From: a virus
IMG/VR virus record: IMGVR_UViG_3300025436_000002
Coordinates: 96,001 to 160,000 of that record
DNA: 64,000 nucleotides
Direction: 5' to 3' (one strand)
In this document: positions 9,376 to 63,200 of the stretch, piece after piece
How the letters are laid out: each line of letters starts with the position of its first letter
Position numbering within the stretch: the first letter of the stretch is position 1
Program-made: the position numbers and the translations under genes
The notes under the pieces: model-generated
The model's database searches: none
What the model was told of the DNA's origin: nothing
What the model saw: only the letters and a program-made list of their open reading frames with translations

Positions 9376-9387
9376 TTTATATTATAA
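9376..9387 (+). promoter_or_regulatory. putative late promoter TTTATATTATAA
   Basis: Motif recurs upstream of about 12 genes. Confidence 0.6.
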
Positions 9388-9417
9388 GCACATAGAGGAT
9401 TACGTAGGAAGGTAGCA

Positions 9418-9774
9418 ATGATAAAAAATATAAGACAGCTAGTGGAAGATGCTACAAACAAGCTAGATGCCAAGAGAGTGGCTAAGATGAGTTCATCTGA
9501 GAGAGAAAATTATTTCCATGATGAGGATAGAGTATATGATGACCTACCTCAGATGCTTGATGATGTTTTTGTAAATGATAAATTTGGATTTGTTCGAGTA
9601 TTCGACAATGGAGTTATGCGGGCATGTGGAGTCTTTGATCTTACCACTTCTGCAATCCAAGTAACGCCTAAATTAGTTTTAAATAAACTCCTCATTAAAT
9701 ATCCTAAGGCTACATTTGTGTACACGGATTATCCTTCCAATAATTTTAGGACACTTGATCTGATAGAAGTATAA
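9418..9774 (+). CDS. protein with leader MIKNIRQLVE
   Basis: Leader family; late motif upstream. Confidence 0.75.
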   Translation: MIKNIRQLVEDATNKLDAKRVAKMSSSERENYFHDEDRVYDDLPQMLDDVFVNDKFGFVRVFDNGVMRACGVFDLTTSAIQVTPKLVLNKLLIKYPKATFVYTDYPSNNFRTLDLIEV

Positions 9775-9835
9775 CAATAACTTAATAAATATTAAAAGCA
9801 GACTTGTAATATAGTCTGCTTTGTGCTATACTATA
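9772..9835 (+). promoter_or_regulatory. stem-loop sigma70-type promoter module
   Basis: IR aaagcagact/agtctgcttt; TTGTAA 9804; TG-TATACT 9827. Confidence 0.8.
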
Positions 9836-9864
9836 ATTAATATTATATTTAAAGGGTGAGATAA

Positions 9865-10176
9865 ATGTTACTACTCGAGACAGGTATGATGAAATACAAT
9901 ATGACAGAAGTAGTCGCTATTCTAGCAGTAGAAGGAGATACCTCTTATATTGAATACTTCTGGACAGGATCTATTTTGAGTAGCAGGGTAAATATACCTC
10001 CCAGATATATAGGGATACCTACTAGATCTACCAATACTACATACACATGCGAGGTTAATACTTTAGAAGAGTTAGAGCATCGGGAGATGGTAACATCAAA
10101 GAACAAATATAAAGTATTTATCAAAGGAGTTCACTCAGTCAATAAGTATCTTATGATGAAGGAATTACTCAAATGA
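9865..10176 (+). CDS. ELLK-tail family small protein
   Basis: VNKYLMMKELLK*. Confidence 0.85.
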   Translation: MLLLETGMMKYNMTEVVAILAVEGDTSYIEYFWTGSILSSRVNIPPRYIGIPTRSTNTTYTCEVNTLEELEHREMVTSKNKYKVFIKGVHSVNKYLMMKELLK

Positions 10177-10481
10177 ATAAAAGTGTCTCAAAGATTTATA
10201 CACATTGTTACGGTGATGACAAACTAATAGCCATAGCTGAATTTACAACGAGGTCAATTGGCAGTAATATTCTTTATAGGTATTGGTACATGAGTAGTAA
10301 CTTACTTAGTAATAATACTCTTAACACTTCATACCTTGAGAGAAGCGAGTATGGTCATTTATTGGATATTCAATCAGACTTTGAACAAGTTAGAAGCGAA
10401 GTAGCTAGATACTCAGGGAGGTTGATAACTGATCAGAAAGCTCTAGATAAACATATGATGATGAGAGAGTTATTAAAATGA
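10173..10481 (+). CDS. ELLK-tail family small protein
   Basis: LDKHMMMRELLK*. Confidence 0.85.
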   Translation: MNKSVSKIYTHCYGDDKLIAIAEFTTRSIGSNILYRYWYMSSNLLSNNTLNTSYLERSEYGHLLDIQSDFEQVRSEVARYSGRLITDQKALDKHMMMRELLK

Positions 10482-10819
10482 AAATAAAAGAGTTATTACT
10501 AGATTTTATAATACTACTTAATGTATTAGTACTGCCTACCCTGCTTCCAGAGATGTGTTGGATGAAAGTATGCTTTGAAGAATTCAATTATAGTCATCCC
10601 TTAATATCATGGCTAACCATGATAATTCCAGTTGTCGTATATTTCAAGGTTGCCTCATTCCTACTCCCTAAATTTATACTGTACGTATTTCCGAAAAGAT
10701 TTTTAGACTCTAATTTAGAAGCTAGATATGGAACTCTGACAGATGAACAAGCTACAGTATTTATAGTTTTACTTATAGGTATTGGACTCATATTTGCTTT
10801 AATTAATTTATATATTTAA
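10478..10819 (+). CDS. membrane protein (about 3 TM helices)
   Basis: Hydrophobic segments; ATGA-coupled. Confidence 0.7.
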   Translation: MKIKELLLDFIILLNVLVLPTLLPEMCWMKVCFEEFNYSHPLISWLTMIIPVVVYFKVASFLLPKFILYVFPKRFLDSNLEARYGTLTDEQATVFIVLLIGIGLIFALINLYI

Positions 10820-10831
10820 GGAGTTACTAAT

Positions 10832-11071
10832 ATGAAATGTAAAATTATCGCAATAGTTTTGATTAAGGAAAGTCGTAGAGTTACTAGACTATATTTTATG
10901 GATGAAAATTCCACACTATGCTATGTACATCCATGGCTACCAACTCGATTTATAAGTGCATGTAGGGATTTAAAATCATTATCTAAGATCTTTCATAGTC
11001 CAGACACGGAGTTAATTATAGATAAAAATAAAATTAACAAGTATATTATGGCACAGGGGTTATTGAAATGA
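10832..11071 (+). CDS. ELLK-tail family small protein
   Basis: INKYIMAQGLLK*. Confidence 0.8.
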   Translation: MKCKIIAIVLIKESRRVTRLYFMDENSTLCYVHPWLPTRFISACRDLKSLSKIFHSPDTELIIDKNKINKYIMAQGLLK

Positions 11072-11301
11072 TGGAATATGTAGCCCTAGTTCTTATAAAT
11101 AATGTACTAGAATTAGGGTATTTTTATCAGGAAGATAGGCTTTGTTATAGTTACTTTAATGGTTGCGGTTTCTATTATATCAGTCGTCACATCACATTAG
11201 AGACGTGTCTAAAAAATAGTTCTAAATTTTTAGGGTACTCAGTAGTAACGGATATAAAATGCATGAATAAACATCTTATGGCACAGGAGTTATTGAAATG
11301 A
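11068..11301 (+). CDS. ELLK-tail family small protein
   Basis: MMEYVAL...MNKHLMAQELLK*. Confidence 0.85.
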   Translation: MMEYVALVLINNVLELGYFYQEDRLCYSYFNGCGFYYISRHITLETCLKNSSKFLGYSVVTDIKCMNKHLMAQELLK

Positions 11302-17968: not shown

Positions 17969-17980
17969 TTTATATTATAA
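17969..17980 (+). promoter_or_regulatory. putative late promoter TTTATATTATAA
   Basis: About 30 nt upstream of the 18009 start. Confidence 0.6.
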
Positions 17981-19777: not shown

Positions 19778-19789
19778 TTTATATTATAA
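19778..19789 (+). promoter_or_regulatory. putative late promoter TTTATATTATAA
   Basis: Upstream of 19835. Confidence 0.6.
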
Positions 19790-19834: not shown

Positions 19835-20422
19835 TTGGTATTACAAATCAAAAACACGAGTCTTTCAGAAGTTATTGTATCAGGTCTTAGTATTTCCATT
19901 GATGCAAGTGCTACAGTATCCGCTCCATTCTATGCACCTTATGTTAGAAAAACAGTTCAAGATGCCATAGTCGGCTATCCAACATTGTCTATGGTTGCAC
20001 TAGCAGCAGGTTCTCCGACTCAAATTAAAAACCATGACTTAGTACATGCGGTGACTGTTGTTGAACTTAACAATCTTGTTATAACTGCGGATACTACTGT
20101 TGTTGTTCCTTTGAGTGAGGTTGAACTTACTGAGTCTCAAATTGTAGCTGCTATCAGACCTTTCCCAGAGTTGGAACTATTAGGTAGCACTATGTTGACA
20201 GTTGAAATTCCAACACAAGCTTTTGACATCACTAACCCTGTTATCCTTGGCGACATGTTTGAGGATGTCAATACAATCTTAGAAACTATCGAAGCTAACG
20301 ATGCTGCTGCCACGGTAGCAATAGCAGATTGCCTAGTTAAAAATGGTTTCAATGATACATTCGTTACCGCTGGTGGAAAAACAGTTACAGTTGTTGATGG
20401 TCAAATAATCAGTATAATCTAA
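19835..20422 (+). CDS. putative virion structural protein
   Basis: TTG start after GAGGT; A/V/T-rich; C-terminal GKTVTVVDGQI; segments resemble the N-terminus of 18009. Confidence 0.6.
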   Translation: MVLQIKNTSLSEVIVSGLSISIDASATVSAPFYAPYVRKTVQDAIVGYPTLSMVALAAGSPTQIKNHDLVHAVTVVELNNLVITADTTVVVPLSEVELTESQIVAAIRPFPELELLGSTMLTVEIPTQAFDITNPVILGDMFEDVNTILETIEANDAAATVAIADCLVKNGFNDTFVTAGGKTVTVVDGQIISII

Positions 20423-27375: not shown

Positions 27376-27387
27376 TTTATATTATAT
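27376..27387 (+). promoter_or_regulatory. putative late promoter TTTATATTATA
   Basis: Upstream of the discoidin pseudogene. Confidence 0.5.
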
Positions 27388-27433
27388 ACAGATTGCCTCT
27401 CATGGGGGGGTAACATTGTACGGAGAATATATA

Positions 27434-37411: not shown

Positions 37412-37423
37412 TTTATATTCTAT
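37412..37423 (+). promoter_or_regulatory. putative late promoter TTTATATTCTA
   Basis: Upstream of 37448. Confidence 0.55.
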
Positions 37424-37447: not shown

Positions 37448-38929
37448 ATGATTAACAGAATTAAAAATTTGATAAACGAGTTGGTTGGGGAAGTTACTCA
37501 ACCTATAGTAAACTCGGAAAACTTTAAAAAATGGTTTGACGATAGTAAAATTGTAGATGAGCATGGAGAACCTTTAGTCGTCTACCATGGTACTAATAAA
37601 AACTTTGTAGAGTTCTCTCATGAAGAGATAGGGAGTGGTTCTGGAAACAGGGGTCATTATGGGGAAGGCTTTTATTTCTCGTATGATATACGAGAAGCTA
37701 AGGGCTACGGTAAGAACTTACTAGAAGCTTATCTTAAAATAACTAACCCTTTTGATGCGGGTAATCCTAAAAACTTTGAAAAGTATGCTGAAGATTACGG
37801 ATTTAAAAAAGAAGATTTAGCTATTAACTTTGGATGGCTTATAAGTAGTATTAGGAAGACTGATAAGGTAGCTCATGAGTTAGCTCTGTTAGTAGATGGA
37901 TACGGATTTGAAAAAGGCTGGGAAGTATTCATAGAAAATCATGATGGAAAAGTTCCAGAATCTAAATTAGACTTAAATGAAGTATCTAACTGGATATCTG
38001 AATATTGTAACTCTGATTCTAAGTGGGCTGTTCCCGACTACATAAAAGAAGAATTAAAAGTACTTGGGGAAACTCCAGTATATGAACAAGGTTACGAAGC
38101 TGGTTCTGAACCAAATCTATTATATATGACTGACTATGGACAATCTGGAAGTATAACTAAAACCCTTAAAGAAGACGGATACGATGGAGTTCTTGCAGGA
38201 AGTGAAGTAGTTGCTTTCTATCCGAATCAAATTAAATCAGTTGATAACAAGGGTACTTTTAATCCTAACTCTAATAGTGTGTATGAAAGTGATGATAAGA
38301 CTGAAACAGATAGTTTCAAGACATGGTTCGACGGAAGTAGGGTTGTAGATGAACAAGGTAATCCTCTAGTTGTTTATCATGGAACTAGTGCATCTTTTGA
38401 TACTTTCTCATTAAAACACTTAGGTATCTCGACTAAGGCATCTTCTGCAAAGCAAGGATTCTTCTTCGCTTCTGATGAAGAAACTGCAAGAGGGTATGCT
38501 AATTTTGCTGGAGAACTAGCAGTCCAAGATCTTATAGATAAAGCGGGAAGGATGGAACGATTAAAGAAATGGGACATGGCTGTCTTATACACTAAAAAGG
38601 CTGAGGACTTAGAAGAGAGTGGCGAACATTTGAAGAACTCTACGGTAATGAAAGCTTATTTAAAACTAGAAAACCCTATCATAATTGATGCTGACGGAGA
38701 GTCTTTTGTGGATTTTGAAGATGAAATTCACAAAGCTATTGAAGACTCTAAACGAAGAGGTAGGGATGGAGTTATCATTAAGAACCTCGTAGACAATGCA
38801 GACTATAGTAGCTCTAGGATAGCTACTCACTATCTAGTATTTTCCCCTAATCAAATTAAATCTGTCAATAATAAAGGTACCTTTAGTTTAGATTCTGATA
38901 ATATATATGAACAAGAGGAGGGGATGTAA
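37448..38929 (+). CDS. tandem ART-PolyVal-like (ADP-ribosyltransferase fold) domain protein with leader
   Basis: Two copies of FK.WF..S..VD..G.PLVVYHGT...GF(Y/F)F...A.GY...AYLK..NP...DGV...F.PNQIKSV.NKGTF. Confidence 0.75.
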   Translation: MINRIKNLINELVGEVTQPIVNSENFKKWFDDSKIVDEHGEPLVVYHGTNKNFVEFSHEEIGSGSGNRGHYGEGFYFSYDIREAKGYGKNLLEAYLKITNPFDAGNPKNFEKYAEDYGFKKEDLAINFGWLISSIRKTDKVAHELALLVDGYGFEKGWEVFIENHDGKVPESKLDLNEVSNWISEYCNSDSKWAVPDYIKEELKVLGETPVYEQGYEAGSEPNLLYMTDYGQSGSITKTLKEDGYDGVLAGSEVVAFYPNQIKSVDNKGTFNPNSNSVYESDDKTETDSFKTWFDGSRVVDEQGNPLVVYHGTSASFDTFSLKHLGISTKASSAKQGFFFASDEETARGYANFAGELAVQDLIDKAGRMERLKKWDMAVLYTKKAEDLEESGEHLKNSTVMKAYLKLENPIIIDADGESFVDFEDEIHKAIEDSKRRGRDGVIIKNLVDNADYSSSRIATHYLVFSPNQIKSVNNKGTFSLDSDNIYEQEEGM

Positions 38930-39676: not shown

Positions 39677-40445
39677 AAGTGATCTTCACATAGAATTCAA
39701 GAATCATGAGCCTGACTTATCCGACGTGCAAGTATACGTTATTGCAGGAGATTTAGGTCTATTTAAGAATGAAAAAAAATGGCTTATTGATCTAACTAAC
39801 AAGTATCCAAACGTGGAGATGGTTGTGGTTTCAGGCAACCACTCATTCTATGACACTAATATCGAAAAAGTAGATAGAGAATCGAGAGAGCTTTCTAAGC
39901 AATATGAAAGAATACATTATCTTCAAAATGATTCTATAGTTCTTAACGGGTTTAGGTTTATAACTAGCACTTTATGGACCGACTTCAATAAAGGCAATCC
40001 TACTGCGATGTACCTAGCCCAAGCTAGAATGAATGATTATAAACAGATAAGATATCATGGAGGAGCTTCTAGACTTACTCCATATAGAGTCGCTATATTA
40101 CATAAACAATCTAAGGATTATATATTTAAGACCCTCAATACTAGTGAAGAACCTTGCTTTGTCATATCCCACCATCGTCCTTATATAGAAAGAAATCACA
40201 TGACCGATGAGTTATCCCCAGCTTATGAAGTTGATTTACTTAAAGAGCTTGATAAATGTAAAAAACTGCCTATAGCTTGGTTCCACGGACATGATCACGT
40301 CTCAAGCACTAAGATAATAGAGTATGGGCATGGCTCTGTAGAATTTATATCAAATCAAAAAGGGTATCCTAATGAAGAATCTGGTTTTGATCCGAACTTT
40401 ATTTATATTTTAAATGAGGATGTTTTGGGATTAAGTAATGATTAA
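39660..40445 (+). CDS. calcineurin-like metallophosphoesterase
   Basis: SDLH, AGD, GNH, HH, HGH.H. Confidence 0.9.
   Translation: MNLKIESDLHIEFKNHEPDLSDVQVYVIAGDLGLFKNEKKWLIDLTNKYPNVEMVVVSGNHSFYDTNIEKVDRESRELSKQYERIHYLQNDSIVLNGFRFITSTLWTDFNKGNPTAMYLAQARMNDYKQIRYHGGASRLTPYRVAILHKQSKDYIFKTLNTSEEPCFVISHHRPYIERNHMTDELSPAYEVDLLKELDKCKKLPIAWFHGHDHVSSTKIIEYGHGSVEFISNQKGYPNEESGFDPNFIYILNEDVLGLSND
40402..40413 (+). promoter_or_regulatory. putative late promoter TTTATATTTTAA
   Basis: Inside the 3' end of the upstream gene, before 40438. Confidence 0.55.
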
Positions 40446-42375
40446 TAGAATAAATGAACTAATACATAAGTTATGGACTAATGAGAAAGTTACTAGAGCT
40501 CAACTACACGAGATGAGTTTTGGGATAGAACTTGAGATGAAACATGAAGACATGGATATGTCTGATTTTGGAGTAATGAGGAGAGATGATAAGAAATTCT
40601 TCAATTTAACTAAAAATTGGGATATACACCATGATGGTTCTCTAAGTGGAAATGGTACTGAATTTGTATCCCCTCCTATGCCTTTTGAAGAATTTATAGA
40701 AAAAATCCCCCAAGTCATAACTTATCTTAGAGATGAAGGTTTTTATGGTGATGATGAGTGTGGATATCATATAGGAGTTTCGTCCTCTTCTTTAAATCTT
40801 TCTAAAAATATGAGAGACATGTATGAAAAACTTGAAGATGAATATTCTGAGCTAGTTGCTACTATTTTAGCGTATAATTTAAACTCTAAGGGTTTATTCG
40901 CCCTTGGAGACATTGATAGACAGTCTGGGGAGTATACACAAGACTTGGTAGATACTATTCATATAGACAAAGATGAAGTCGGAGATTTTCTAAAAGATGT
41001 TGAAAGGAATGAGCTGACTCTTGGAGATATTATATCTAACTCTGATAGATTTGTACATGGGGTTGCTCATTTTAGACAAAAAGTAGACCAGAATATACAT
41101 CATGTCTCTATGACAAGAAGGGAGGACTATGTAGAATTTAGAGGCTTAGGGGGTAAAAAAGCTTTTGACAGTCTTAGACTTCCAGACTTTGTTAGAAAAC
41201 TCTGTGTTATCTCAGCTTCTCAGGCTTTGGGCAATATTAAAACTGATTATACTGAACGGGAGCTGTATAAAATATTAAAACCTTACATGAAAGGCATACC
41301 CGAAGTAGCCCATATCTTCCAAACACAATCCAAAGAGACTGAAGGAGCTTCTGGACTTTTAGGGATAATTAATTACTTAAAAGATAAACCTAACTTGAGA
41401 AAAACTGCTTCTAGGATGTCCGACATGACTTTTTCTAAGATGTTTAGAGAATACTTAGGAACAGTTAGACCTAATTCTTTAGAGTTCAAAAAGTTGATGG
41501 TGAGATTTCCGATAGATACTATATACATGTTGCTTAGTTATACTAGAGATTTTAAAGATCTGCTAGGTACTATCTCTGGAGATAAATTTCCTTTAGATAA
41601 AATGCTAGAAGTCTTAGATAGAGAAGGATCTTCCGATTCTAGATTATTTGGAAATATCATGGAAGCTCTTACTAAACTAAAAATAGTAACCCTAACGGAT
41701 AAACAACAACTTGATGTGGTTGATAGATTAAAAGGCGTGTCTGGCATACTTAAATACTTACCTAATGTGGGTCTAAATACATTAGTTTATCTCTTTGGTT
41801 CGGATAATGCAAACGATAGGTTTAATGCGTATCAATATCTTGAATTAAATAATAAGTTAAATCTAATTCCTAAGGAAGAGTTGTTAAAATTCTGGGATAC
41901 TCTATACGAAAAGGGACAGTGGCTGTCATTTAGAGATGGGGCTAAGAAAATATTAACTCCTGAGGAATACCTTACCAGATATCCTAAAGCTCTTCAAGAT
42001 AGGCTACTTCTCAGTGAGCCTGATGTTCTTACCTACGTTTTAGACAACTATGACAAATATAAAAACATGGGTCTCCCTTTCACAGGTGTTATAGTTTGGC
42101 TTGCTAATGATGCTTTAAAGGACGAAGTAGCTGAGAAAAATTTTATAAGGCTAACTGTCTTGAAACCAGAGTTATTATCTCAAATAGATTATATAAGTAG
42201 AGAAGTACAACTAGAAATAGTTAAACAAAGACCTGATGCTATATTATCCATAAAATCTCCCTACAAGGCAACTCTGAATAAAGTAAGAGAGCTTGGTGGA
42301 AAAGATGCAGATAAGTGGATTGAGACTGCTGCGACAGACTTTGGGTATAGAGATGTTATGGATGGTTTATTGTAA
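40438..42375 (+). CDS. amidoligase-2-like (COOH-NH2 ligase) protein, paralog 1
   Basis: FGIELE, DGSL, EFVSP, CGYHIGVS, VEFR. Confidence 0.75.
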   Translation: MINRINELIHKLWTNEKVTRAQLHEMSFGIELEMKHEDMDMSDFGVMRRDDKKFFNLTKNWDIHHDGSLSGNGTEFVSPPMPFEEFIEKIPQVITYLRDEGFYGDDECGYHIGVSSSSLNLSKNMRDMYEKLEDEYSELVATILAYNLNSKGLFALGDIDRQSGEYTQDLVDTIHIDKDEVGDFLKDVERNELTLGDIISNSDRFVHGVAHFRQKVDQNIHHVSMTRREDYVEFRGLGGKKAFDSLRLPDFVRKLCVISASQALGNIKTDYTERELYKILKPYMKGIPEVAHIFQTQSKETEGASGLLGIINYLKDKPNLRKTASRMSDMTFSKMFREYLGTVRPNSLEFKKLMVRFPIDTIYMLLSYTRDFKDLLGTISGDKFPLDKMLEVLDREGSSDSRLFGNIMEALTKLKIVTLTDKQQLDVVDRLKGVSGILKYLPNVGLNTLVYLFGSDNANDRFNAYQYLELNNKLNLIPKEELLKFWDTLYEKGQWLSFRDGAKKILTPEEYLTRYPKALQDRLLLSEPDVLTYVLDNYDKYKNMGLPFTGVIVWLANDALKDEVAEKNFIRLTVLKPELLSQIDYISREVQLEIVKQRPDAILSIKSPYKATLNKVRELGGKDADKWIETAATDFGYRDVMDGLL

Positions 42376-43124
42376 TGCTAAAAAGAATAAAAGAACTTTT
42401 AAAATTGAATGAAGCTACCCTAGAACAAGTGTTAAGTGTTACAGATAGGGACAGGCTTATTAAAACATGTATAGCAAATCTTGAAGTGAGTGGTGAGAGT
42501 CTTAGTCATTTCTATATGTATATTGATTCGGATACTGCTGAGGAGATAGCTGATGAATTAGGAGATTCCGAAGATGTCCATTCACTAGATGACCTGCTTA
42601 ACAAGTATAGTGATGACGAAGTAGTAAACACGAATGCCTTTAAACAGTTCGTATATACCAATACCGAAGCTAAACTTGATAGTGTAGTAGATGAGTTGGA
42701 GGATACTTTAGATTGGCGTAGAGATCATAGTTTCGTAAATCTGTATAGAGCTATTGGATTTTCTAGCTCTGGTAAATTTAATCGACTTACGGGTGAGCAT
42801 GGGGCTACTAACTTATCTTCTTGGTTAGAACATCTTTACGTCAAAGGTAAGCATGTAGGCATCTTCTGGGCTGATTCTTTTGATAAGGCTAAGGAGTTTG
42901 GAAACTTGAATGTTAGCGGAGATTTCTATATTCTAAAAACCAATGTTGAAAATAGATATATTGATTGGTATGAAACTATAAAACTTAGGATGGATTTAAC
43001 TCTTGGGGAGGAAAACGAGATAAGATTATTCAAAGGAACTCCTTTAACAATAGAAACTATATATGACGAAACTGGGGACGAAATAGATATATCCATATTA
43101 GAAGGGAAGAAACTGTATGCTTAG
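42375..43124 (+). CDS. leader-bearing protein, ART-like fold (paralog of 43493)
   Basis: LYRAI, GKH.GI.W, E.EI.L.KG.P. Confidence 0.6.
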   Translation: MLKRIKELLKLNEATLEQVLSVTDRDRLIKTCIANLEVSGESLSHFYMYIDSDTAEEIADELGDSEDVHSLDDLLNKYSDDEVVNTNAFKQFVYTNTEAKLDSVVDELEDTLDWRRDHSFVNLYRAIGFSSSGKFNRLTGEHGATNLSSWLEHLYVKGKHVGIFWADSFDKAKEFGNLNVSGDFYILKTNVENRYIDWYETIKLRMDLTLGEENEIRLFKGTPLTIETIYDETGDEIDISILEGKKLYA

Positions 43125-43491
43125 AAGAATTAAAGAAATACTAGATTACATTAAAGGGGACGTACATAAACAAGATTTAGAAGATATATTTCCCATGGTT
43201 AATAACGTATACTACCTAGATTATAACGGGGACTCTGAGTTTATATATGTACGTAAAGATGATGATACTTTTCATGTGGCTAAACATTTGGGAGGCATGC
43301 AAATGAGGGGAAGACACGGAGAGCTTGTTCCTCATGAAGTAAATGCTGACGAATTACTCTTGACAATACAACAATCTGATGCAAGTTTAGACCCTAGAAA
43401 TGGTGATAGGGAAGTCAGGATACAAGATACTCCCAAAGGTTATGACGTTACTCTTATAGAAATAGATAATGATATCTGGGAGCCTTTGTAG
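43117..43491 (+). CDS. leader-bearing acidic protein
   Basis: MLRRIKEIL. Confidence 0.75.
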   Translation: MLRRIKEILDYIKGDVHKQDLEDIFPMVNNVYYLDYNGDSEFIYVRKDDDTFHVAKHLGGMQMRGRHGELVPHEVNADELLLTIQQSDASLDPRNGDREVRIQDTPKGYDVTLIEIDNDIWEPL

Positions 43492-43492
43492 T

Positions 43493-44167
43493 ATGCTTAG
43501 AAGAATAAAAGAACTTTTAAAATTAAACGAAAAACAACAGACTCTCGACGGTTTTTGGGAAAATATAGATTGGTATAAGTTTGCTGAATGGACTAAAAGC
43601 AATATACCCGACTATATGTATGAAAACGAGAATCCCTTAGACTCTTTTGCGGAAGCGTATGTGGAAGACCACGATATCGACTTAAACGACTTAGATGATA
43701 ATGAGGATTATCAAAGTTGGTTAACGGGTGAATTAGCTTACGCATTAGAAGAAACTTATAGACTTGTAGATCATGCTGTGGGGAGTTCAAATCCTATATC
43801 TATTTACAGAGCTCTTAGAATATCAGGAGACTACTTAGAACATCTTAAAAACCAAGGTAAACATTTAGGTATCTACTGGACATGGGAAGAAAGTCTTGCT
43901 ACTGACTATGAAGGCTCCGAGTCAAGTAGGAATAGCTCTGGTGACTTCTACTTAATTGAGACGGAAGTCCCTCAGACCAATATAAATTGGAGAAATACCC
44001 TACTACAGAATTTTGTATCCCAAGGGGAGAGTGAAATTCAGTTATATAAAGGAGTCCCAATCAAAATTAAACGGATGTGGAAAGCTCCTAATAACTTAAC
44101 TGCTGTACCCAATAGGAAGGAATTAGAAGTTCCTGAAGAGATTAAGAATAAAGTATTTTTTGCCTAA
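43493..44167 (+). CDS. leader-bearing protein, ART-like fold
   Basis: MLRRIKELLKLNE; IYRAL, GIYWT, ESEI. Confidence 0.6.
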   Translation: MLRRIKELLKLNEKQQTLDGFWENIDWYKFAEWTKSNIPDYMYENENPLDSFAEAYVEDHDIDLNDLDDNEDYQSWLTGELAYALEETYRLVDHAVGSSNPISIYRALRISGDYLEHLKNQGKHLGIYWTWEESLATDYEGSESSRNSSGDFYLIETEVPQTNINWRNTLLQNFVSQGESEIQLYKGVPIKIKRMWKAPNNLTAVPNRKELEVPEEIKNKVFFA

Positions 44168-45288: not shown

Positions 45289-45300
45289 TTTATATTTTAA
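45289..45300 (+). promoter_or_regulatory. putative late promoter TTTATATTTTAA
   Basis: Upstream of 45329. Confidence 0.6.
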
Positions 45301-45328: not shown

Positions 45329-45952
45329 ATGGATAGGGCACTAGGTAGGATTAAAAAGCTATGCGAGGATCTATCCTCTGATTTGGCTAACCATTATTTA
45401 TGGTATCGAAGTGTAGATCGAATCCCTAAGGACATTTACAGCTACATTATAGGTGCTGCTAGGAGTTTAACTTATGATATGATAGACGAACCCGAAGTAG
45501 CTGAAATATTAAAAAATGATGAGAGTCTTAGGGCTGTAAAGCTCATGGATTATCCTTTTAAGATAAAAAAAGAAAATACAGGTATGCAGAATTTTGGATA
45601 CGGTATCTACTTTGCCAGTAATTACAAGTGGGCTAGTCGGTATGGAAGTTTTACTTTCGTATCTCGAGTTATGCCTAAAGAGATAGCCGTAATAAAAGAC
45701 TTTCAATCCGAATGGGTTAAACTTTCTGGAGGATTAGGTACAGACATTGCTAACTACTTTCAAGAGATGGGAATTGACCTCCATAGTGAACAAGCTCCTT
45801 TATTTCCTAAACTTATTAAGAAGTTCGCAGGTAAGGATAAAAAAGCGTTACTAGTTAATAACTCATCTGACAGTATTGATGCACAACTTTGTGTATACAA
45901 TACGAGTGCGATATATACTAAATATCTTATATATAAAAACGGAGACTTATAA
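45329..45952 (+). CDS. leader-bearing protein, possible ART-like fold
   Basis: LGRIKKLCE leader; WYRS, GYGIYFA...A..YG. Confidence 0.55.
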   Translation: MDRALGRIKKLCEDLSSDLANHYLWYRSVDRIPKDIYSYIIGAARSLTYDMIDEPEVAEILKNDESLRAVKLMDYPFKIKKENTGMQNFGYGIYFASNYKWASRYGSFTFVSRVMPKEIAVIKDFQSEWVKLSGGLGTDIANYFQEMGIDLHSEQAPLFPKLIKKFAGKDKKALLVNNSSDSIDAQLCVYNTSAIYTKYLIYKNGDL

Positions 45953-46464
45953 TGGAGGATAATTTCGTGGGACTTAATGACTTAAAAAGATTATTAAACA
46001 AAAGTAAAATAAATGAAGCTTCAACACTCAAAGTCTCTTTCAATTTAACAGACTTAGAAAATGTGGTATTAAAATTTGAAACAGGGGTTCTTCCAGTCGA
46101 ACGTCTTATAGAATTTCTAAGAAAAGAAATGGACGAAGCTCTCGAGAAAAGACAAGTCAAGGATAACCATAAGACAAGAGAAGATCAAAAGTTGGCTGAG
46201 GGCATGAAAACACATGCTCGTATTCTTTTTGCAGATGCTTTTGAAACTTTAGGATATGATGCAAATGACTCTTCCATAGTTAGTATGGTTGAGAATTTAA
46301 CCATACACTTTATAAAATTAAAAGTTAAATATAAAGATGCCGATGATACTACTACTGCAACTTCTGCTATTGAGGCAACATGGCATGCATCCTCAAATGA
46401 GTGGAGAGAAGTCTTAGATAGACTTAAAGCTACATTCGAGGGTGAGGTTACTAATGTTGAATAG
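45952..46464 (+). CDS. leader-bearing hypothetical protein
   Basis: LNDLKRLLNKSKINE. Confidence 0.7.
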   Translation: MEDNFVGLNDLKRLLNKSKINEASTLKVSFNLTDLENVVLKFETGVLPVERLIEFLRKEMDEALEKRQVKDNHKTREDQKLAEGMKTHARILFADAFETLGYDANDSSIVSMVENLTIHFIKLKVKYKDADDTTTATSAIEATWHASSNEWREVLDRLKATFEGEVTNVE

Positions 46465-47378: not shown

Positions 47379-47390
47379 TTTATATTTTAA
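47379..47390 (+). promoter_or_regulatory. putative late promoter TTTATATTTTAA
   Basis: Upstream of 47418. Confidence 0.6.
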
Positions 47391-50495: not shown

Positions 50496-50525
50496 CCCTT
50501 TTATATTATAAATAATGTAGGAGGG
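50496..50525 (+). promoter_or_regulatory. late motif embedded in an SD-occluding hairpin
   Basis: cccttttatatta pairs with taatgtaggaggg. Confidence 0.6.
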
Positions 50526-50531
50526 ATTTTT

Positions 50532-53247: not shown

Positions 53248-53259
53248 TTTATATTTTAA
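53248..53259 (+). promoter_or_regulatory. putative late promoter TTTATATTTTAA
   Basis: Upstream of 53290; flanked by a cctattta/taaatagg IR. Confidence 0.6.
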
Positions 53260-55833: not shown

Positions 55834-55836
55834 AGA

Positions 55837-57585
55837 ATGAGTTTAGAAAATATTAGACAACTTAGTAAAGGACTTTTAAATGAAGGTCTTAATAGAAATG
55901 TATATCAAAAGATTATTAAAGATATCGAACTAGGTATTGAGCTTGAGGTTATTTATAATGGGGATAACATTTATAGACATGGCGGAGACTCTGATGAGCA
56001 AGATGCTGTGATAGATTTCAGTTCTGACCTGTCTTACTTCAAAGGTCAACTTAAAGCTTTTGAGGAGATAGCTGATTTCTTCTATGACATGTTAAAGCCA
56101 GATACTTTTAAATATCTGAGATCTAAGGGCGAGAAGTATGTCCCACATATTACAGAGTTTAGTTCAAATTTTGAAGGTTCTTTATATCGTCTTAAGAATG
56201 ACGTTGAATCTGAGCTTGACGAACGTATACAAGAGTGTGAAGACATCTATGATACATATGAAAGATATATACCAGAGATTGAAGATATGCCCAACAAATA
56301 TTTTCTTGAATATACTGAAGTGCCTTATGGTGAAGGACATGGAAACTTTACCTATCCAGAGGATGCGGAAGTTACTTATGAAAAAGAGATAACTGAGGCT
56401 AAGGGTAAGTTGTTAGATGTACTGGGAGATCGTCTTATTGAATTATATAATCAAAAATATGAACTAGACCCTGCTAAAAAGAATACTCTTCATGCTGTCG
56501 AATTAACTATAGATGACTATTCTGGAGGAGGTAGTGAGGTAGGTAGTGAGGTAGGTAGTGAAGGAGGTGTTGATCCTGATGACGTAAGACGTTATCTTGA
56601 AGATACTACTGCTGGAGAACTCATGACTGAATTTGAGGTTGAAGGTTTAGGTCAATGGAGTTATGAAACAGATAGTTCCCTTAATGAGGGAGGGGTTGAA
56701 TTGGTATCCCCTGTTGTAGGTTTTGATGATTTCGTAAATTTAATACCTCAACTCTGTAATGCTCTGAATGCAGAATCTTTTGAATCTGATGAATCTTGTG
56801 GTTATCATATAGGCTTGTCTAGTTACAACTTTAATATCCAAGATATGATTAAACAGATTATGGATTACTATAAAGCTAAAGGTTATAACTTATTAACTTC
56901 TTACATAATAGCTACTCAACAAGGGTATAAAGCTACTTATAGACATAATGATAAGTATAGTAGGGACGAAACTACTTCCTATGCAGAATCATTGATGAGT
57001 TGGGTAGGTGGCCATCGTCTAAGAAGTAAGAGTTTTGATGAGATACTACACTCTAATGAATTTGATACAGAAGTGCTTAAATTTATGAACAGTAAGTATT
57101 CAAATACAAACTTATTGCATAAAAACTATGTAGAACTTAGGGTTCTGGGGGGCGGAAAAGGTTTTAGAGTTCTTAGAAATGAAAGTATGCTAAGAAAATA
57201 CCTATATGATGCTATCTCACAAGTTTATGGAGGTATTGATTTTGATTCCGAAGGTAAAGTTATTGTCAAAGAAGTGTCTGCTAAAGAAATAGTTAAGCTA
57301 GTTGACTTTTATGTTAGGGGTATTAATTATAAAGGAGCTCCTTCTAGTAATCCTACTTCTCAAAGTCACTTGGATAAGTCTAAAGAATATAAAGAGAAGA
57401 GAAAGACTGCTCAATGGAATAAGGGAGTTGAAAAAGCTAAAGAATCTACCCCTATAAAAGTTGGAGATATAACTAATCTAGGAAAAGTCACGGAGATTCT
57501 TAAAGGTGGAGAACAGTACGTAATCAATGGTGTAATACATAGTGCACGTAATGTACGTAGTTTAGAAGACGAGGTTCCATTTTAG
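55837..57585 (+). CDS. amidoligase-2-like protein, paralog 4
   Basis: LGIELE, DSSL, ELVSP, CGYHIGLS, VELR. Confidence 0.75.
   Translation: MSLENIRQLSKGLLNEGLNRNVYQKIIKDIELGIELEVIYNGDNIYRHGGDSDEQDAVIDFSSDLSYFKGQLKAFEEIADFFYDMLKPDTFKYLRSKGEKYVPHITEFSSNFEGSLYRLKNDVESELDERIQECEDIYDTYERYIPEIEDMPNKYFLEYTEVPYGEGHGNFTYPEDAEVTYEKEITEAKGKLLDVLGDRLIELYNQKYELDPAKKNTLHAVELTIDDYSGGGSEVGSEVGSEGGVDPDDVRRYLEDTTAGELMTEFEVEGLGQWSYETDSSLNEGGVELVSPVVGFDDFVNLIPQLCNALNAESFESDESCGYHIGLSSYNFNIQDMIKQIMDYYKAKGYNLLTSYIIATQQGYKATYRHNDKYSRDETTSYAESLMSWVGGHRLRSKSFDEILHSNEFDTEVLKFMNSKYSNTNLLHKNYVELRVLGGGKGFRVLRNESMLRKYLYDAISQVYGGIDFDSEGKVIVKEVSAKEIVKLVDFYVRGINYKGAPSSNPTSQSHLDKSKEYKEKRKTAQWNKGVEKAKESTPIKVGDITNLGKVTEILKGGEQYVINGVIHSARNVRSLEDEVPF
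56530..56565 (+). repeat. 12-bp tandem coding repeat (GSEV x3)
   Basis: ggtagtgaggta x2 plus ggtagtgaagga. Confidence 0.8.
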
Positions 57586-57586
57586 A

Positions 57587-59155
57587 ATGAGTTTAGAGAA
57601 TATAAGACAACTTGGAAAAGGACTTTTAAACGAAGGTCTTAATAGAAATGTTTATCAAAGAATCATTAAAGATATAGAACTCGTTATTGAACTTGAAGTT
57701 ATTTATGAGAACGATTTGATGGGTGGGGATGATTTATCCTCTGGGCAGGATTCTTATTTGGACGACATCTATATTGGGGATGATGCAGACTCTTTCAATG
57801 CTAAAATAGTAGAGTTTAACGATTATATAGATACTATTTACCATATTCTAGGAAACCAATGTTTTGACTACTTACACGAGAAAACTAACATATACCTTCC
57901 TAATGATGTAGAGGAACTAGATACTAATATTAGTGGAGATAGTCATAGCCTTCTAAATGAACAAAAATCTGAAATAGATAAGAGACTTAATGAATGTGAA
58001 ACCATAATAGAAGACTATAATAAATACTTAAAAATATTTAAAGATATACCTGACGAAGCTTGGATTGACGACACTGGATTAGAAGGCGAAGAGCTCCTAG
58101 AGGCTAAACAAAAAGACTTTGAAGATTTCCTACTATATGTGCATAATTTAAGTAATATTTTAGATACCCTCAAATCCCTAAAGGCAGAGTTATTAATGGG
58201 TATTGAAATGATAATTGAGCAACCAGTTTCTGATAACATCGGGAATGGGAGTGGGCGTGACTCTGACGAATCTCAAGCTGATCTTGTAATGAATGATATA
58301 GAACATACTGGACCTGTAAGACTTATGAGGGAAATGGATGAATTTGATATTAGTGGTAAGAGATCATGGGAATTCGTAGATGACGGTTCTTTGAGTTCTG
58401 GAGGGGTCGAGATGGTATCCCCAGTAGTATCCTATAAAAATTTTATTGATTATATTCCTAGAATATGTACGTCTTTAGCTGAGAATGGATTCCATGCTGA
58501 TAAATCTTGCGGTTATCATATAGGATTGTCCAGTAGTTCCTTTAGTCTCCCAAGCCTTATAAGCGATACAATAGAACATTATGGAAAGCTCGGATACAAC
58601 AAATTAACATCTACTATCATAGCTACTCAACAAGGTTATAAAACTGTCTTTAGACACAACAATCCAGAACGAGATGAAAGTTATAGGTACACTATATCTC
58701 TTTTAGACCATGTTATCTTTGCTACTTCATATCAGGATAGTATGACGGGAGATACTCTTGATGCTATTAAGAATTCCAGTCTTGATGATCTACTCCACTC
58801 TAATAAATTCGATGCCTCTGTTGCTAAGTTCCGTATCGAAAAATTTACAAACGTAAATAGACTCCACAATAATAAATATATTGAGCTCAGAGTACTTGGA
58901 GGTGTTGAGGGATTCGAGATTCTCAAAGATGAGAATAAACTAAAGAGATATTTATATGATGCTATCTCTCAAGTCTATGGAGCGGTTGATTTTGATAAGG
59001 CTACTGGAGAAGCTAAAATTAAAGAGATGTCTGCTAACGAGATAGTTAAGCTTATGGATTTCTATTTAAGAAAAGTGAGACAGGAGAGAGAGCCTGATAA
59101 TGTTTATAAACAAAATAGGGAAGCTATTAAACTTAGAAATAATGGAGGATTGTGA
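57587..59155 (+). CDS. amidoligase-2-like protein, paralog 5 (tandem duplicate of paralog 4)
   Basis: Near-identical first 40 aa; DGSL, EMVSP, CGYHIGLS, IELR. Confidence 0.75.
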   Translation: MSLENIRQLGKGLLNEGLNRNVYQRIIKDIELVIELEVIYENDLMGGDDLSSGQDSYLDDIYIGDDADSFNAKIVEFNDYIDTIYHILGNQCFDYLHEKTNIYLPNDVEELDTNISGDSHSLLNEQKSEIDKRLNECETIIEDYNKYLKIFKDIPDEAWIDDTGLEGEELLEAKQKDFEDFLLYVHNLSNILDTLKSLKAELLMGIEMIIEQPVSDNIGNGSGRDSDESQADLVMNDIEHTGPVRLMREMDEFDISGKRSWEFVDDGSLSSGGVEMVSPVVSYKNFIDYIPRICTSLAENGFHADKSCGYHIGLSSSSFSLPSLISDTIEHYGKLGYNKLTSTIIATQQGYKTVFRHNNPERDESYRYTISLLDHVIFATSYQDSMTGDTLDAIKNSSLDDLLHSNKFDASVAKFRIEKFTNVNRLHNNKYIELRVLGGVEGFEILKDENKLKRYLYDAISQVYGAVDFDKATGEAKIKEMSANEIVKLMDFYLRKVRQEREPDNVYKQNREAIKLRNNGGL

Positions 59156-59694
59156 TCATGACAGGAAGACGTATAATAAATCATTGGTCTGTTTCAGGGT
59201 ATACCCCTAACGCTACTGACTTTGAACATTACCATTTTATAATAGCTGGAAACGGGGATGTGTATCATGGAGATCATAAAATAGAAGCTAATGATAATAC
59301 ATCGGATGATGACTATGCTCAACATACTGGTGGAGGCAATACCAAGAGTATTGGAGTGGCTGTATCGGCTATGCTGGGGTATGAGTCTCCTAAGAAAGTA
59401 GGTAAATATCCTATAACTAAAGTTCAAATAGAAAAACTATTTGAATTAAATGCTAAGTTATTATTTAACGAGGGTTTTACTAAAGTAACTATCGAAAATT
59501 TAAAAACACATTATCAGTTTGGAAAAGAAAACCCTAAAACTTCAAGTGTTGGAAAGATCGATATCTGCTTCATCCCATACTATCCTAAGATAAAACCAGA
59601 CGACTGTGCTGACTTCATAAGGGAAAAAACCCAATGGTACTTAAATAAGATAGTTACTGGGGAATTAAATCCCAGGGTAACTCTAAAAAATTAA
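59152..59694 (+). CDS. N-acetylmuramoyl-L-alanine amidase (Amidase_2-like)
   Basis: HWS, YHF.I, AQHT.G.N..SIGV, TH, GKIDI. Confidence 0.8.
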   Translation: MIMTGRRIINHWSVSGYTPNATDFEHYHFIIAGNGDVYHGDHKIEANDNTSDDDYAQHTGGGNTKSIGVAVSAMLGYESPKKVGKYPITKVQIEKLFELNAKLLFNEGFTKVTIENLKTHYQFGKENPKTSSVGKIDICFIPYYPKIKPDDCADFIREKTQWYLNKIVTGELNPRVTLKN

Positions 59695-60450: not shown

Positions 60451-61122
60451 ATGGGGAACTATAAGAAGAAACCCGTAAAAAAGTCTGCAAAATCCATAAA
60501 GAAACAGTTGAAAGAGTATGCTATCAAAGCTAGGGTAGCCTGTGCGTACTGTGGAAATCATTATTCTGAGAAAAGAAAGATGAGTGTAGATCACGTAGTT
60601 CCTAAATCTTCTGAGGGGATAGCTTCTCTTGATAATCTTATCATCGCCTGTACTTTTTGTAACAGTGGGAAGAAGTGTAGTCTTCCTATGGGAGAATTTT
60701 TAGAGTTAAATCCTAAAGCTAAGGTTTTCTTAGGCAGGTACCTTGAGAAGATGAAGAAATGTGTTATAAACGGTAAAAATTATTTTAAAGAAATATCATG
60801 GGTACTTGACCCTCTTTATATTCTAAATGAGGATATAAAAAGAGAGGTGGATTCCATGAGTCTAGGTAAACTTAAAAAGATAATAAAAGAAAATAAAGAA
60901 CCTAGTGATGAAATTCAGGAGTATTTGGATAAGCTAGGATTTAGACACTATTCTGAGGATGAAGTAAAACCTGATCCAGAACAATTAGCCATGGGTATTA
61001 AAGTTGAAATGGAGCATACTACAAATAAAGAAGTGGCTAAACTTATAGCACTAGCTCATCTTTCGGAGATTCCCCTTTATTATACTTATCTTAAAAAAAT
61101 GGAATCTGAACATGGTGGTTAG
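60451..61122 (+). CDS. HNH endonuclease in frame with a DUF5661-like domain
   Basis: CAYCG...VDHVVPKS...NLIIAC..CN..K; then QLAMGIKVEMEHT...IAL.HL.E.P.YY..L..ME. Confidence 0.75.
   Translation: MGNYKKKPVKKSAKSIKKQLKEYAIKARVACAYCGNHYSEKRKMSVDHVVPKSSEGIASLDNLIIACTFCNSGKKCSLPMGEFLELNPKAKVFLGRYLEKMKKCVINGKNYFKEISWVLDPLYILNEDIKREVDSMSLGKLKKIIKENKEPSDEIQEYLDKLGFRHYSEDEVKPDPEQLAMGIKVEMEHTTNKEVAKLIALAHLSEIPLYYTYLKKMESEHGG
60856..61122 (+). CDS. nested in-frame leader-bearing DUF5661-like protein
   Basis: GAGGTG SD, late motif at 60815, MSLGKLKKIIKE leader. Confidence 0.6.
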   Translation: MSLGKLKKIIKENKEPSDEIQEYLDKLGFRHYSEDEVKPDPEQLAMGIKVEMEHTTNKEVAKLIALAHLSEIPLYYTYLKKMESEHGG

Positions 61123-61190: not shown

Positions 61191-61223
61191 AAAGTGATTA
61201 AATTTATGAAGGAGCTGGAAGAT

Positions 61224-61661
61224 ATGAATAAACAGAGAGGTAGGCTGCCTGAGTATAAAAATCCTGCGTTAGTGTTTGTATATGGAAGTCTTAAAAAAGG
61301 ATTTAGAAATAACAAAGTTTTAGGAGACTCTAAGTATGTTGGAACATTTAAAACTACTACTAAATTTAAGATGTTGGACTTAGGATACTACCCTGCACTT
61401 ATGTTGGATGATGTGGGTGGTAACGTAGTCCTTGGCGAACTTTATGAAGTCTCTGGGGATACCTTTGAAAGATTAGACCAGCTTGAGGGGTACCCTCATA
61501 TGTATGATAGAGATATCATAACATTGAGTAATGGAAGTAAGGCATGGGTATACTTCATGAAGAAAGATAACTATAATGCAACGGCAGACTTGGTAGAGCC
61601 AAATAAGGGAGGTCTATTAATTTGGACTGAGAAGCCTCTTCAGAATAGGAGGACTATCTGA
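61224..61661 (+). CDS. gamma-glutamylcyclotransferase (AIG2-like)
   Basis: VFVYGSLKKG, YPAL, GELYEV, LD.LEG.P..Y.R, AWVY. Confidence 0.9.
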   Translation: MNKQRGRLPEYKNPALVFVYGSLKKGFRNNKVLGDSKYVGTFKTTTKFKMLDLGYYPALMLDDVGGNVVLGELYEVSGDTFERLDQLEGYPHMYDRDIITLSNGSKAWVYFMKKDNYNATADLVEPNKGGLLIWTEKPLQNRRTI

Positions 61662-61956
61662 ATCTTCATCTAGGACTAATATTCAAAGCAGACACTTCTG
61701 GAGTGTACACTTTAGTAAGTCATAGGAGTCTACTTAAAATAATAATAAATCCAATACTACGTCAATTTGGTTTTTATATAAACTCAACTACCAATGAATC
61801 CAGAAATGATATCATTGGACTGAAGTTATGTAAACTCCCTAAAGGACTACGTATAAATATAATAGATGGGTATAAGGATTCCCTATATTACTTAATAACA
61901 AGTAGGCACATGGTAGTTAAAAAAAGAATATTTTTTTAATATACTGTTACATAGAC

Positions 61957-62010
61957 TTGCAATTATATCAAAGATAGTGTATACTAGTTAAGTAAGGTTA
62001 ATTAAGAGGA
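61957..62010 (+). promoter_or_regulatory. promoter module
   Basis: TTGCAA-17-TATACT plus gtaaggttaattaagagg leader. Confidence 0.7.
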
Positions 62011-62017
62011 CTATTTT

Positions 62018-62287
62018 ATGAAAGTATCAGAAGTTAACGGAACTCTAAAAGTACATCGTATTGCAAGTAGAAATAAAACTATTCAAAAGTACTTAGTAAC
62101 TTTGTTCAGAGGTTCTGAAGAAAAACTTCTAGCTAAACTCGATGGAGATATTTCAAACTTAGTTACATTCTGTGATAATAATTATTCGTTCGAAAATCTA
62201 GACCGTATTTGTCATTACGGTGGATGTGTTACCACAGCTACTTTTGAGGGTCTTACTACTTTCACGGTGGAGGTGTTTGTTGACTAG
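62018..62287 (+). CDS. hypothetical protein
   Basis: SD plus promoter. Confidence 0.7.
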   Translation: MKVSEVNGTLKVHRIASRNKTIQKYLVTLFRGSEEKLLAKLDGDISNLVTFCDNNYSFENLDRICHYGGCVTTATFEGLTTFTVEVFVD

Positions 62288-62416
62288 TTGGAAATTATTT
62301 GATAAAAGGATTAACTCCCTATGTGCTAGATTAAGGATAACTAAGCAAGAGTTAATGACATGGAAATTTATAGACGTACAAAAAGCATTAGAATTAATGA
62401 ATTAAGGAGACAAGGC

Positions 62417-63130
62417 ATGGAAAAGTACATACAATCATTTAAAGATCAATTAAAAATACTTCCTGAGAGTGGCTATAAAAAGCAATTGGCTAAATACGGT
62501 GAAAGAGTTGCTAGAAATATTTACAATAGTAGTATTGTTAGTTTAGTTTCTCAAATATCTTTAACCGATAAGGATATAGAATTTAGCGTAGACGAGCTGA
62601 GTGGAAATATACCCGTAGAGAAGATTAAGCCAGTCTATATTCAATATGGGCATGATCTTGGAGTTGTTCGAGAACTTATATATGATGAGCCTTCTGATAT
62701 GAATACTATAGATAAGGCTGTCATGAAGTCATCTTCTGATATAAATAATCATTTCATGAACTACGTTTTAACGGATAGTCTCAAGAGTGTTCATATTGAG
62801 TTAGGTTCTTTAAAATATCTCTTAGAGAAACAAGTTGACAAACGTATTCTTATTGTAGGAAACGGGACTTTAGATAACTTGTTAAAATTAAAATATGCTA
62901 TAGACTCTACGGATTTAAAATACGCAGGTAATACTCCAGCTGGAGATTTGGTATACCACTCTAAGCATATCCCAACACAAACTATATTTATAATAGAACT
63001 TAAAAATGGAGTTAAATTATTAGAATATGTGGTTAAGAATCCATTAACTATCGTAGGATCTAATTACATGCATAAGGCTGGTATCATTCTAAAAAATCAC
63101 AATATTATAACTAAATATTCATTAATCTAA
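62417..63130 (+). CDS. hypothetical protein
   Basis: AAGGAG SD before the ATG at 62417. Confidence 0.7.
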   Translation: MEKYIQSFKDQLKILPESGYKKQLAKYGERVARNIYNSSIVSLVSQISLTDKDIEFSVDELSGNIPVEKIKPVYIQYGHDLGVVRELIYDEPSDMNTIDKAVMKSSSDINNHFMNYVLTDSLKSVHIELGSLKYLLEKQVDKRILIVGNGTLDNLLKLKYAIDSTDLKYAGNTPAGDLVYHSKHIPTQTIFIIELKNGVKLLEYVVKNPLTIVGSNYMHKAGIILKNHNIITKYSLI

Positions 63131-63160
63131 TGACCGAATAACATATTCTAGAGTTGATAA

Positions 63161-63191
63161 CTCCCTTTTATATTATAAGTATGAAGGGGAG
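63161..63191 (+). promoter_or_regulatory. late motif embedded in an SD-occluding hairpin
   Basis: ctcccttttatatt pairs with agtatgaaggggag. Confidence 0.55.
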
Positions 63192-63200
63192 GTTCTTCGT

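Follow-up and report, generated by a model that had tools for sequence, protein, structure and literature searches.

A shared N-terminal leader and a late-type promoter motif suggest head-packaged enzymes in an uncultured T4-superfamily phage

In the virus record IMGVR_UViG_3300025436_000002, a short amphipathic leader stands at the N-terminus of 21 to 22 encoded proteins whose bodies belong to at least 16 unrelated families, and an AT-rich DNA motif, TTTATATTHTA, recurs upstream of genes for such proteins as well as upstream of structural genes. The probable explanation is that the leaders are T4-like capsid-targeting propeptides on proteins made from a late promoter consisting only of a −10 element. 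Such a system would load an ART-PolyVal protein (ART, ADP-ribosyltransferase), amidoligases, and other proteins into the head, to be delivered along with the DNA. An initial annotation of a 64,000-nt stretch of this record (the window; bases 96,001 to 160,000 of 170,200 bp) had proposed that the leader-bearing proteins are made late, packaged in the head, and injected, and this interpretation is supported as far as sequence analysis reaches. Late timing, docking, encapsidation, cleavage after Glu, retention in the head, injection, and action on the host are the steps that we infer. The record is about 90% complete. Coordinates below are window positions, and proteins are named by the first base of their genes, unless marked “genome” for positions in the whole record; piece labels convert so that L002:1830 is genome 21830 and L005:7251 is genome 87251.

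Judged by its sequence, the phage is a distant myovirus of the T4 superfamily, on a deep branch without a close cultured relative. This placement follows from T4-type matches of its sheath, capsid, and prohead protease (described below) combined with the lack of any close cultured match. The tail sheath has 43% identity to its counterparts in T4-like Rhizobium phages, and the major capsid protein matches the gp23 family (PF07068, 69 bits), with its nearest cultured-phage counterpart, at 37% identity, in the Rhizobium phage RHph_TM30 group. No match emerged when the region encoding the putative cargo was searched, at nucleotide and at protein level, against 50,697 cultured-phage records. Nearly all genes lie on the plus strand. 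Two related phage genomes of 158 and 190 kb, with a capsid protein 74% identical, were used for comparison.

The leader occurs in 2 types, M-I-N-R-I-K-x-L-I and M-S-L-x-x-I-K-x-L, each forming a predicted helix of 10 to 22 residues. The initial annotation had listed 14 window proteins as beginning with a basic amphipathic leader, and all 14 N-termini read as described, with the caveat that the leader of the 45952 protein is displaced by about 7 residues. Paralogy does not explain the leader, because the trimmed bodies are mostly unrelated: with the first 25 residues removed, 21 proteins resolve into 5 amidoligases, 1 pair (42375 and 43493), and 14 singletons (BLASTP, 1e-3). A BLOSUM scan of the whole proteome from a single seed (residues 2–11 of the ADP-ribosyltransferase) placed 6 of its 7 best windows at N-termini, which make up 8.5% of all windows, and matches to the leader core pattern are 15 times as dense over the first 20 residues of proteins as elsewhere. 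In an unbiased pairwise test, all-against-all comparison of residues 2–10 yielded 63 high-scoring pairs, versus 5 to 17 at internal offsets. The helical hydrophobic moment is 1.97 for leaders versus 0.91 ± 0.47 for other proteins. An AlphaFold2 model of the 53290 protein shows the leader as a helix of its own (residues 2–15), which a flexible linker carrying the I-N-E site joins to a confidently predicted core.

A shared N-terminus need not imply sorting, as it could reflect A/U-rich, unstructured translation starts or a 5′ segment spread by cassette recombination. The abundance of Lys, Asn, and Ile codons in the leaders fits this explanation, which we nevertheless regard as very improbable. 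The genes for capsid, portal, and sheath, likely the most highly expressed late genes, lack a leader. Synonymous codons differ among the leaders and their DNA identity is low, so it is the peptide and not the DNA that is conserved, and the hydrophobic periodicity and the terminal Glu persist despite these codon differences. Across distant homologs, moreover, the x-Glu joint between leader and body is fixed while leader length varies.

A connection to the phage head comes from the end of the leader. Of the 21 leader proteins, 11 have [LIVM]NE within their first 22 residues, making 12 sites where about 0.6 would be expected, and most of the leader proteins without x-N-E carry L/I-x-Glu. The T4-type (S77) prohead protease, a gp21-family protein (PF03420, 37 bits against a cut-off of 27; phrog_207, 1.7e-26), aligns pairwise with T4 gp21 at 5e-7, including its catalytic His and Ser motifs. 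In this phage, it is fused to a coiled-coil, scaffold-like C-terminal half in 1 protein of 464 residues (genome 17937–19331, piece L001), a fusion kept in both relatives. The same site pattern recurs at predicted maturation sites of head proteins: the capsid protein has a V-N-E whose last residue is 65, matching in position the L-T-E-65 cleavage site in T4 gp23; L-N-E-28 of the protease lies just before the residue aligned to the start of mature-like T4 gp21; and V-N-E-228 lies at the junction of protease and coiled-coil scaffold. All 3 sites recur in the relatives, where they read V-S-E, L-N-E, and L-N-E. The suggestion that leaders typically end in (L/I)xE is thus borne out, since (L/I/V)NE is far above chance and recurs at the capsid and protease sites. 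This pattern is the signature that would be expected if the S77 enzyme cuts after hydrophobic-N/x-Glu, with the leaders among its substrates.

Leader genes are also positioned within the head module itself, where 7 to 8 leader proteins are encoded close to the protease gene. One (genome 17235) follows an acidic gene in the interval from portal to protease, which is where T4 has gp67/gp68, and further ones within the structural region start at genome 27916, 28968, 35186, 3865, and 5983. Amphipathic helices are generic docking elements, so the leader could instead tag its proteins for some other late process, such as a shared chaperone, a modifying enzyme of the kind acting on ribosomally synthesized and post-translationally modified peptides, incorporation into tail or baseplate, or association with the membrane. 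This we consider improbable in view of the match between the post-leader site and the predicted maturation sites of capsid protein and protease and the location of a leader gene between portal and protease; for membrane insertion, the leaders are too weakly hydrophobic. The idea of a tag for radical-SAM enzymes was rejected, as no radical-SAM domain was found in the genome while the control genomes all scored. If it works as the capsid-targeting sequence of T4 does, the leader helix would dock each protein to the prohead core or scaffold, after which the S77 protease would cut behind the Glu and so take the helix off.

This arrangement closely resembles that of T4, in which the internal head proteins all reach the core through a capsid-targeting sequence and the propeptides of gp23, gp24, Alt, and the internal proteins are cleaved off by gp21 (PMC5694885). 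The internal proteins of T-even phages form a diverse defense set with only the tag in common (PMC3012670). As with IPI, IPII, IPIII, and Alt of T4, a short N-terminal peptide ending in (L/I)-x-Glu is carried by unrelated proteins, the candidate cargo includes an ADP-ribosyltransferase (compare Alt), and the genes stand behind the promoter of structural genes. The order of portal, 2 acidic core genes, protease, scaffold, and capsid is colinear with T4 genes 20, 67, 68, 21, 22, and 23. The differences from T4 are that Asn is usual at the P2 position of the site, that about 21 proteins are tagged compared with 4 in T4, that there are 5 amidoligase paralogs of 520 to 850 residues, that the ADP-ribosyltransferase belongs to the HYD2/PolyVal clade and not to the Alt clade, and that protease and scaffold are joined in a single protein.

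The second line of evidence is the DNA motif. The 12 copies of TTTATATTHTA that the initial annotation reported in the window are all present, all on the plus strand, where about 1.7 would be expected; over 100 shuffled sequences the count averaged 1.69 and peaked at 5, and none reached 12. The whole genome holds 35 sites, 34 on the plus strand and 1 on the minus strand. The logo gives the extended consensus TTTATATTaTAa.TAG, with an invariant 11-mer and a conserved TAG downstream. Its information content 5′ of the motif is approximately 0, which implies that there is no −35 element, as had been claimed. A spacing of about 30 to 60 nt to the start codon, also proposed, holds for 11 window sites (32 to 57 nt, from motif start) and fails for the site at 27376 (85 nt); genome-wide, the motif ends 17 to 65 nt ahead of the start codon in nearly all cases. 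A literature search on the motif found nothing relevant.

The motif's association with structural genes extends well beyond the window, in line with its supposed role as a late promoter. It lies directly upstream of the portal gene (genome 14563), the capsid gene (genome 19413), a baseplate-wedge gene (genome 50375), and tail-like genes, and it heads the sheath operon, which begins with a small gene at genome 37146 followed by the sheath gene at genome 37327. Within the window, it precedes a virion- or tail-like gene (18009) and a tail-like gene (27461). Both relatives share the extended motif, with 30 and 31 copies on the coding strand versus 2 and 4 on the opposite strand. A motif copy was found at most 100 nt upstream of 41% of leader genes versus 11.6% of all plus-strand genes, and at most 3.5 kb upstream of 91% versus 45%. 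Like the T4 late promoter, which is served by gp55, gp33, and the gp45 clamp, this is an AT-rich −10-only element ahead of structural genes; its sequence, TTTATATTHTA with the downstream TAG, is not the T4 element TATAAATA.

A middle or constitutive −10-like element of the host primary sigma factor, or a post-transcriptional or processing signal, would be a different reading of this motif. It contains TATTAT/TATATT, near the host −10, and it also precedes a homing endonuclease gene, a patatin gene, and a tRNA cluster. We give this reading little chance, given the strong association with structural genes and the presence of just 2 sites in the replication and early region (genome 53–105 kb). 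An invariant 11-mer with a downstream TAG and with neither a −35 element nor a TGn is atypical of host promoters, the phage encodes a sigma-like protein, and early genes are covered by a distinct promoter class of sigma-70 type. This second class reads TTGAC(A/T), 13 to 16 nt, ATGnTATAMT, thus with an extended −10, and has 17 members on the plus strand and 2 on the minus strand, heading replication genes and small genes. Four sites (44171–44199, 44438–44466, 46480–46508, and 49953–49981) are interleaved in the cargo region, where they precede leaderless small genes. Since this separate class never stands directly ahead of a leader gene, the picture of 2 regulons holds. A clean terminator was also seen in this region, at 44383–44408.

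TTTATATTHTA would therefore be, as we read it, a late promoter driving both the structural genes and a mosaic of cargo transcription units. It is probably read by host RNA polymerase with a small phage sigma factor having a region-2-like part only. The candidate is encoded at genome 9019–9732 and belongs to a family of about 200 residues, some members of which match PF04542 (Sigma70_r2). For its AlphaFold2 model (predicted local distance difference test, pLDDT, 63), the Foldseek list consists mostly of sigma factors, including gp55 (7d7c_F), at E of 0.17 or more.

The bodies behind the leaders include several recognizable enzymes (Table 1), and the earlier description of ligases and ART-like proteins among them was confirmed by profile for Amidoligase_2 and ART-PolyVal domains. 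The 37448 protein matches ART-PolyVal (PF18760) with 160.7 bits (cut-off 31.2; E 4.7e-47), and its putative catalytic residues H47, Y76, and D246 are conserved in 23 to 28 of 28 aligned sequences. Amidoligase_2 (PF12224, cut-off 22) was matched by the 40438, 47418, 55837, and 57587 proteins with 28.5, 28.1, 31.3, and 25.3 bits. The 53290 protein joins them by paralogy (BLASTP, 6e-46); its C-terminal half is a helical repeat, and its model (847 residues, pLDDT 71) had no match in the PDB at E ≤ 0.001, the weak rows including glutamine synthetases and helical-repeat proteins. Pfam and PHROG gave no family for most of the small cargo proteins or for the leader proteins of the head module, and a protein atlas search returned nothing for the 42375 protein and, as a lead only, an ART/PARP-like fold for the 45329 protein. 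The cargo would then comprise the ART-PolyVal protein, a second ART-like protein, 5 amidoligases of the glutamine synthetase (GS) fold, a DUF5661 protein, and several proteins of no known family. Once freed of their leaders, the enzymes would remain inside the head until the next infection, when they would exit together with the DNA.

The leader could be a propeptide for prohead-core association and cleavage while the proteins bearing it act only in assembly or inside the head, being degraded or expelled on maturation like T4 gp22, gp67, and gp68, or are inert, and so are not injected effectors. Leaders are found on core-position and other head-module genes too, core proteins of T4 with the same processing are cut to fragments that leave the head (PMC5694885), and a few internal [LIVM]NE sites do occur in the cargo proteins. 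These internal sites are rare, however, with 7 beyond residue 22 in approximately 6,900 residues, so the bodies would survive processing. For enzymes of the kind used in biological conflicts, namely amidoligases and an ART-PolyVal protein whose H-Y-D triad is intact, a role in assembly is not plausible, and T4 Alt offers a direct precedent of an injected ADP-ribosyltransferase (PMC5512222). We consider a function confined to assembly unlikely.

Comparison with related proteins supports the separation of leader and body. In the 2 relatives, orthologs of the leader proteins keep leader-like N-termini, and the relatives' own leader proteins include an ART-PolyVal fragment and proteins with weak matches to Tox-ART-HYD1 and a Pol-beta nucleotidyltransferase. 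Among ART-PolyVal homologs on other metagenomic contigs, the conserved domain starts at the same Phe and is preceded by varied short leaders, several ending in L-N-E; no match was found when a leader-bearing homolog (P0043) was looked for in viral contigs. The amidoligase family had 57 matches among 1.84 billion representative proteins. In 30 aligned homologs, leader length and sequence vary, yet a hydrophobic-x-Glu always abuts the conserved body, and the joint Glu is at least 90% conserved, on par with catalytic-looking residues. Close members have the leader type of this phage and distant ones resemble the T4 tag, which indicates that the same cargo carries different, lineage-matched address peptides. 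One distant leader-bearing amidoligase (P0183) matches solely hypothetical proteins of jumbo phages. With only 57 representatives, nearly all with a lineage-specific leader and the conserved x-Glu joint, we tentatively raise the possibility that these GS-fold amidoligases serve specifically as capsid cargo across the wider T4 superfamily and that they are injected, here as 5 paralogs alongside ADP-ribosyltransferases, to modify host proteins or metabolites covalently within the first seconds of an infection. If true, ATP-dependent amidoligase injection would bring an effector chemistry for which no virion-delivered protein is yet known.

Several observations weigh against a capsid-targeting system. 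The leader has no residue-level similarity to the T4 tag (M-K-T-Y-Q-E-F-I-A-E, read from NC_000866) and shares with it only Met, an amphipathic stretch of about 10 residues, and the hydrophobic-x-Glu. About 10 leader proteins lack the stricter x-N-E, and a hydrophobic-x-Glu is frequent by chance in Glu/Leu/Ile-rich sequence. Starts rich in Lys, Asn, and Ile also aid translation in an AT-rich genome. For the leader-like 3031 protein, no late motif lies within 11.8 kb upstream. A BLAST-level search with T4 gp55 against the phage genome had no match, and the fold matches of the sigma candidate are weak. Five enzymes of 520 to 850 residues are large for head cargo, an objection tempered by the 76-kDa size of T4 Alt. 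Finally, the protein at genome 21830–23419 (L002:1830–3419) has a leader-like N-terminus with D-I-E ending at residue 16 on a homing-endonuclease-like body (residues 115–526; phrog_3339, 6e-61), and this may be either a chance resemblance or a packaged nuclease.

Two other known systems share parts of this design. Many ejection proteins of the giant phages phiKZ and SPN3US likewise carry N-terminal propeptides, sometimes identical between paralogs, that are cut after x-x-Glu by a gp21-related protease (PMC5694885). Those phages differ in having an S80 protease, (S/A/G)-x-Glu sites, long propeptides, and a virion RNA polymerase, whereas the phage described here has an S77 protease and short T4-style tags. 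With polyvalent proteins of phages and conjugative elements, for which Iyer et al. (2017) predicted injection of PolyVal-type domains (PMC5512222), the present set shares the ART-PolyVal domain vocabulary and the proposed delivery of conflict enzymes with invading DNA. Polyvalent proteins combine 2 to 15 disparate domains each; here, there is 1 recognizable enzymatic domain per gene, each with its own leader, and with the domains in separate, individually tagged genes these are not polyvalent proteins in that sense.

The principle of tagged, head-delivered proteins is textbook T4 biology, and what differs from T4 here is the scale, the cargo, the leader and promoter sequences, the Asn-rich site, and the fused protease-scaffold. 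Virion contents have been studied for just a handful of phages, and the proteins that travel in heads are mostly unknown. With an address label combined with a promoter class, the proteins that an uncultured phage injects could be listed from its genome alone. The list obtained here has about 21 entries, and on it amidoligases and PolyVal-type ADP-ribosyltransferases appear as probable first-strike enzymes and candidates for counter-defense or host takeover. The leader, as a second tag unrelated in sequence to that of T4, is also suggested as a candidate for loading foreign proteins into phage capsids.

Table 1. Leader genes and late-type motif sites in the window.
Feature	Position	Strand	Basis
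Leader-like N-terminus, early small-gene region, doubtful member	3031..3303	+	
Late-type motif before leader gene 9418	9376..9386	+	
Leader protein, 118 aa, body of no known family	9418..9774	+	
Late-type motif before 18009–19748, virion/tail-like protein without leader	17969..17979	+	
Late-type motif before 19835–20422, no known family, no leader	19778..19788	+	
Late-type motif, then 5′-untranslated-region hairpin, before tail-like gene 27461–27811	27376..27386	+	
Late-type motif before ART gene	37412..37422	+	
Leader (1–11, ending I-N-E) and ART-PolyVal ADP-ribosyltransferase; domain from F26	37448..38929	+	
Late-type motif heading operon 40438–44167	40402..40412	+	
Leader and Amidoligase_2 protein, 645 aa	40438..42375	+	profile match
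Leader (L-N-E at residue 13) and body of no known family; paralog of 43493	42375..43124	+	
Leader and 124-aa body, no known family; orthologs in both relatives keep leader	43117..43491	+	
Leader (L-N-E at residue 13) and body of no known family	43493..44167	+	
Late-type motif heading 45329–46464	45289..45299	+	
Leader and 207-aa body, ART/PARP-like predicted fold (lead only)	45329..45952	+	
Offset leader (I-N-E at residue 22) and body of no known family	45952..46464	+	
Late-type motif before leader gene 47418	47379..47389	+	
Leader (I-N-E at residue 18) and Amidoligase_2 protein, 841 aa	47418..49943	+	
Late-type motif before patatin-like phospholipase 50532–51455 (no leader)	50500..50510	+	
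Late-type motif heading operon 53290–59155	53248..53258	+	
Leader helix 2–15, L-N-E at 11, I-N-E at 20; amidoligase paralog, 847 aa	53290..55833	+	
Leader (L-N-E at residue 16) and Amidoligase_2 protein, 582 aa	55837..57585	+	
Leader (L-N-E at residue 16) and Amidoligase_2 protein, 522 aa	57587..59155	+	
Late-type motif within HNH reading frame 60451–61122	60815..60825	+	
Leader and DUF5661 protein, 88 aa, internal start in longer HNH frame	60856..61122	+	
Late-type motif before 63201–63491, no known family, no leader	63167..63177	+	

Some late-motif transcripts have additional features near their 5′ ends. Three tail-fiber-like late transcripts start with the same 9-bp hairpin (window 27387–27420, L001:2928–2960, and L006:9269–9300), in which a CCUC-rich arm is paired to a G-run; the fold z-scores are −0.4, −2.0, and −2.3. 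In one of these, the CCUCC arm could instead base-pair with the Shine-Dalgarno sequence, so a translational switch or a stability element is possible. For the patatin-like phospholipase (PF01734, 9e-25; window 50496–51455), the motif itself lies inside a 13-bp hairpin. At genome 87251–87352 (L005:7251–7352), the motif stands 26 nt ahead of a cluster of 7 or 8 tRNA genes. ARAGORN calls the first of them a suppressor with anticodon UUA, which would read TAA, the commonest stop codon of the genome (119 of 269), although its anticodon loop looks atypical; in-frame neighboring gene pairs, checked for stop-codon read-through, were not above expectation.

The late cargo units also contain leaderless genes (38930–40445 and 59152–59694) for an HNH_3/AP2 protein, a calcineurin-like phosphoesterase, and an endolysin-like Amidase_2 protein. 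The HNH endonuclease frame listed in Table 1 runs without a stop into the DUF5661 gene, so that it probably gives 2 products; one relative has the DUF5661 gene by itself. Upstream of the portal gene, a frame of 1,326 residues (genome 10545–14525, piece L001) has weak matches to terminase large subunits together with an HNH endonuclease segment at residues 967–1056, which may be an intein or a homing endonuclease inserted in the terminase gene.

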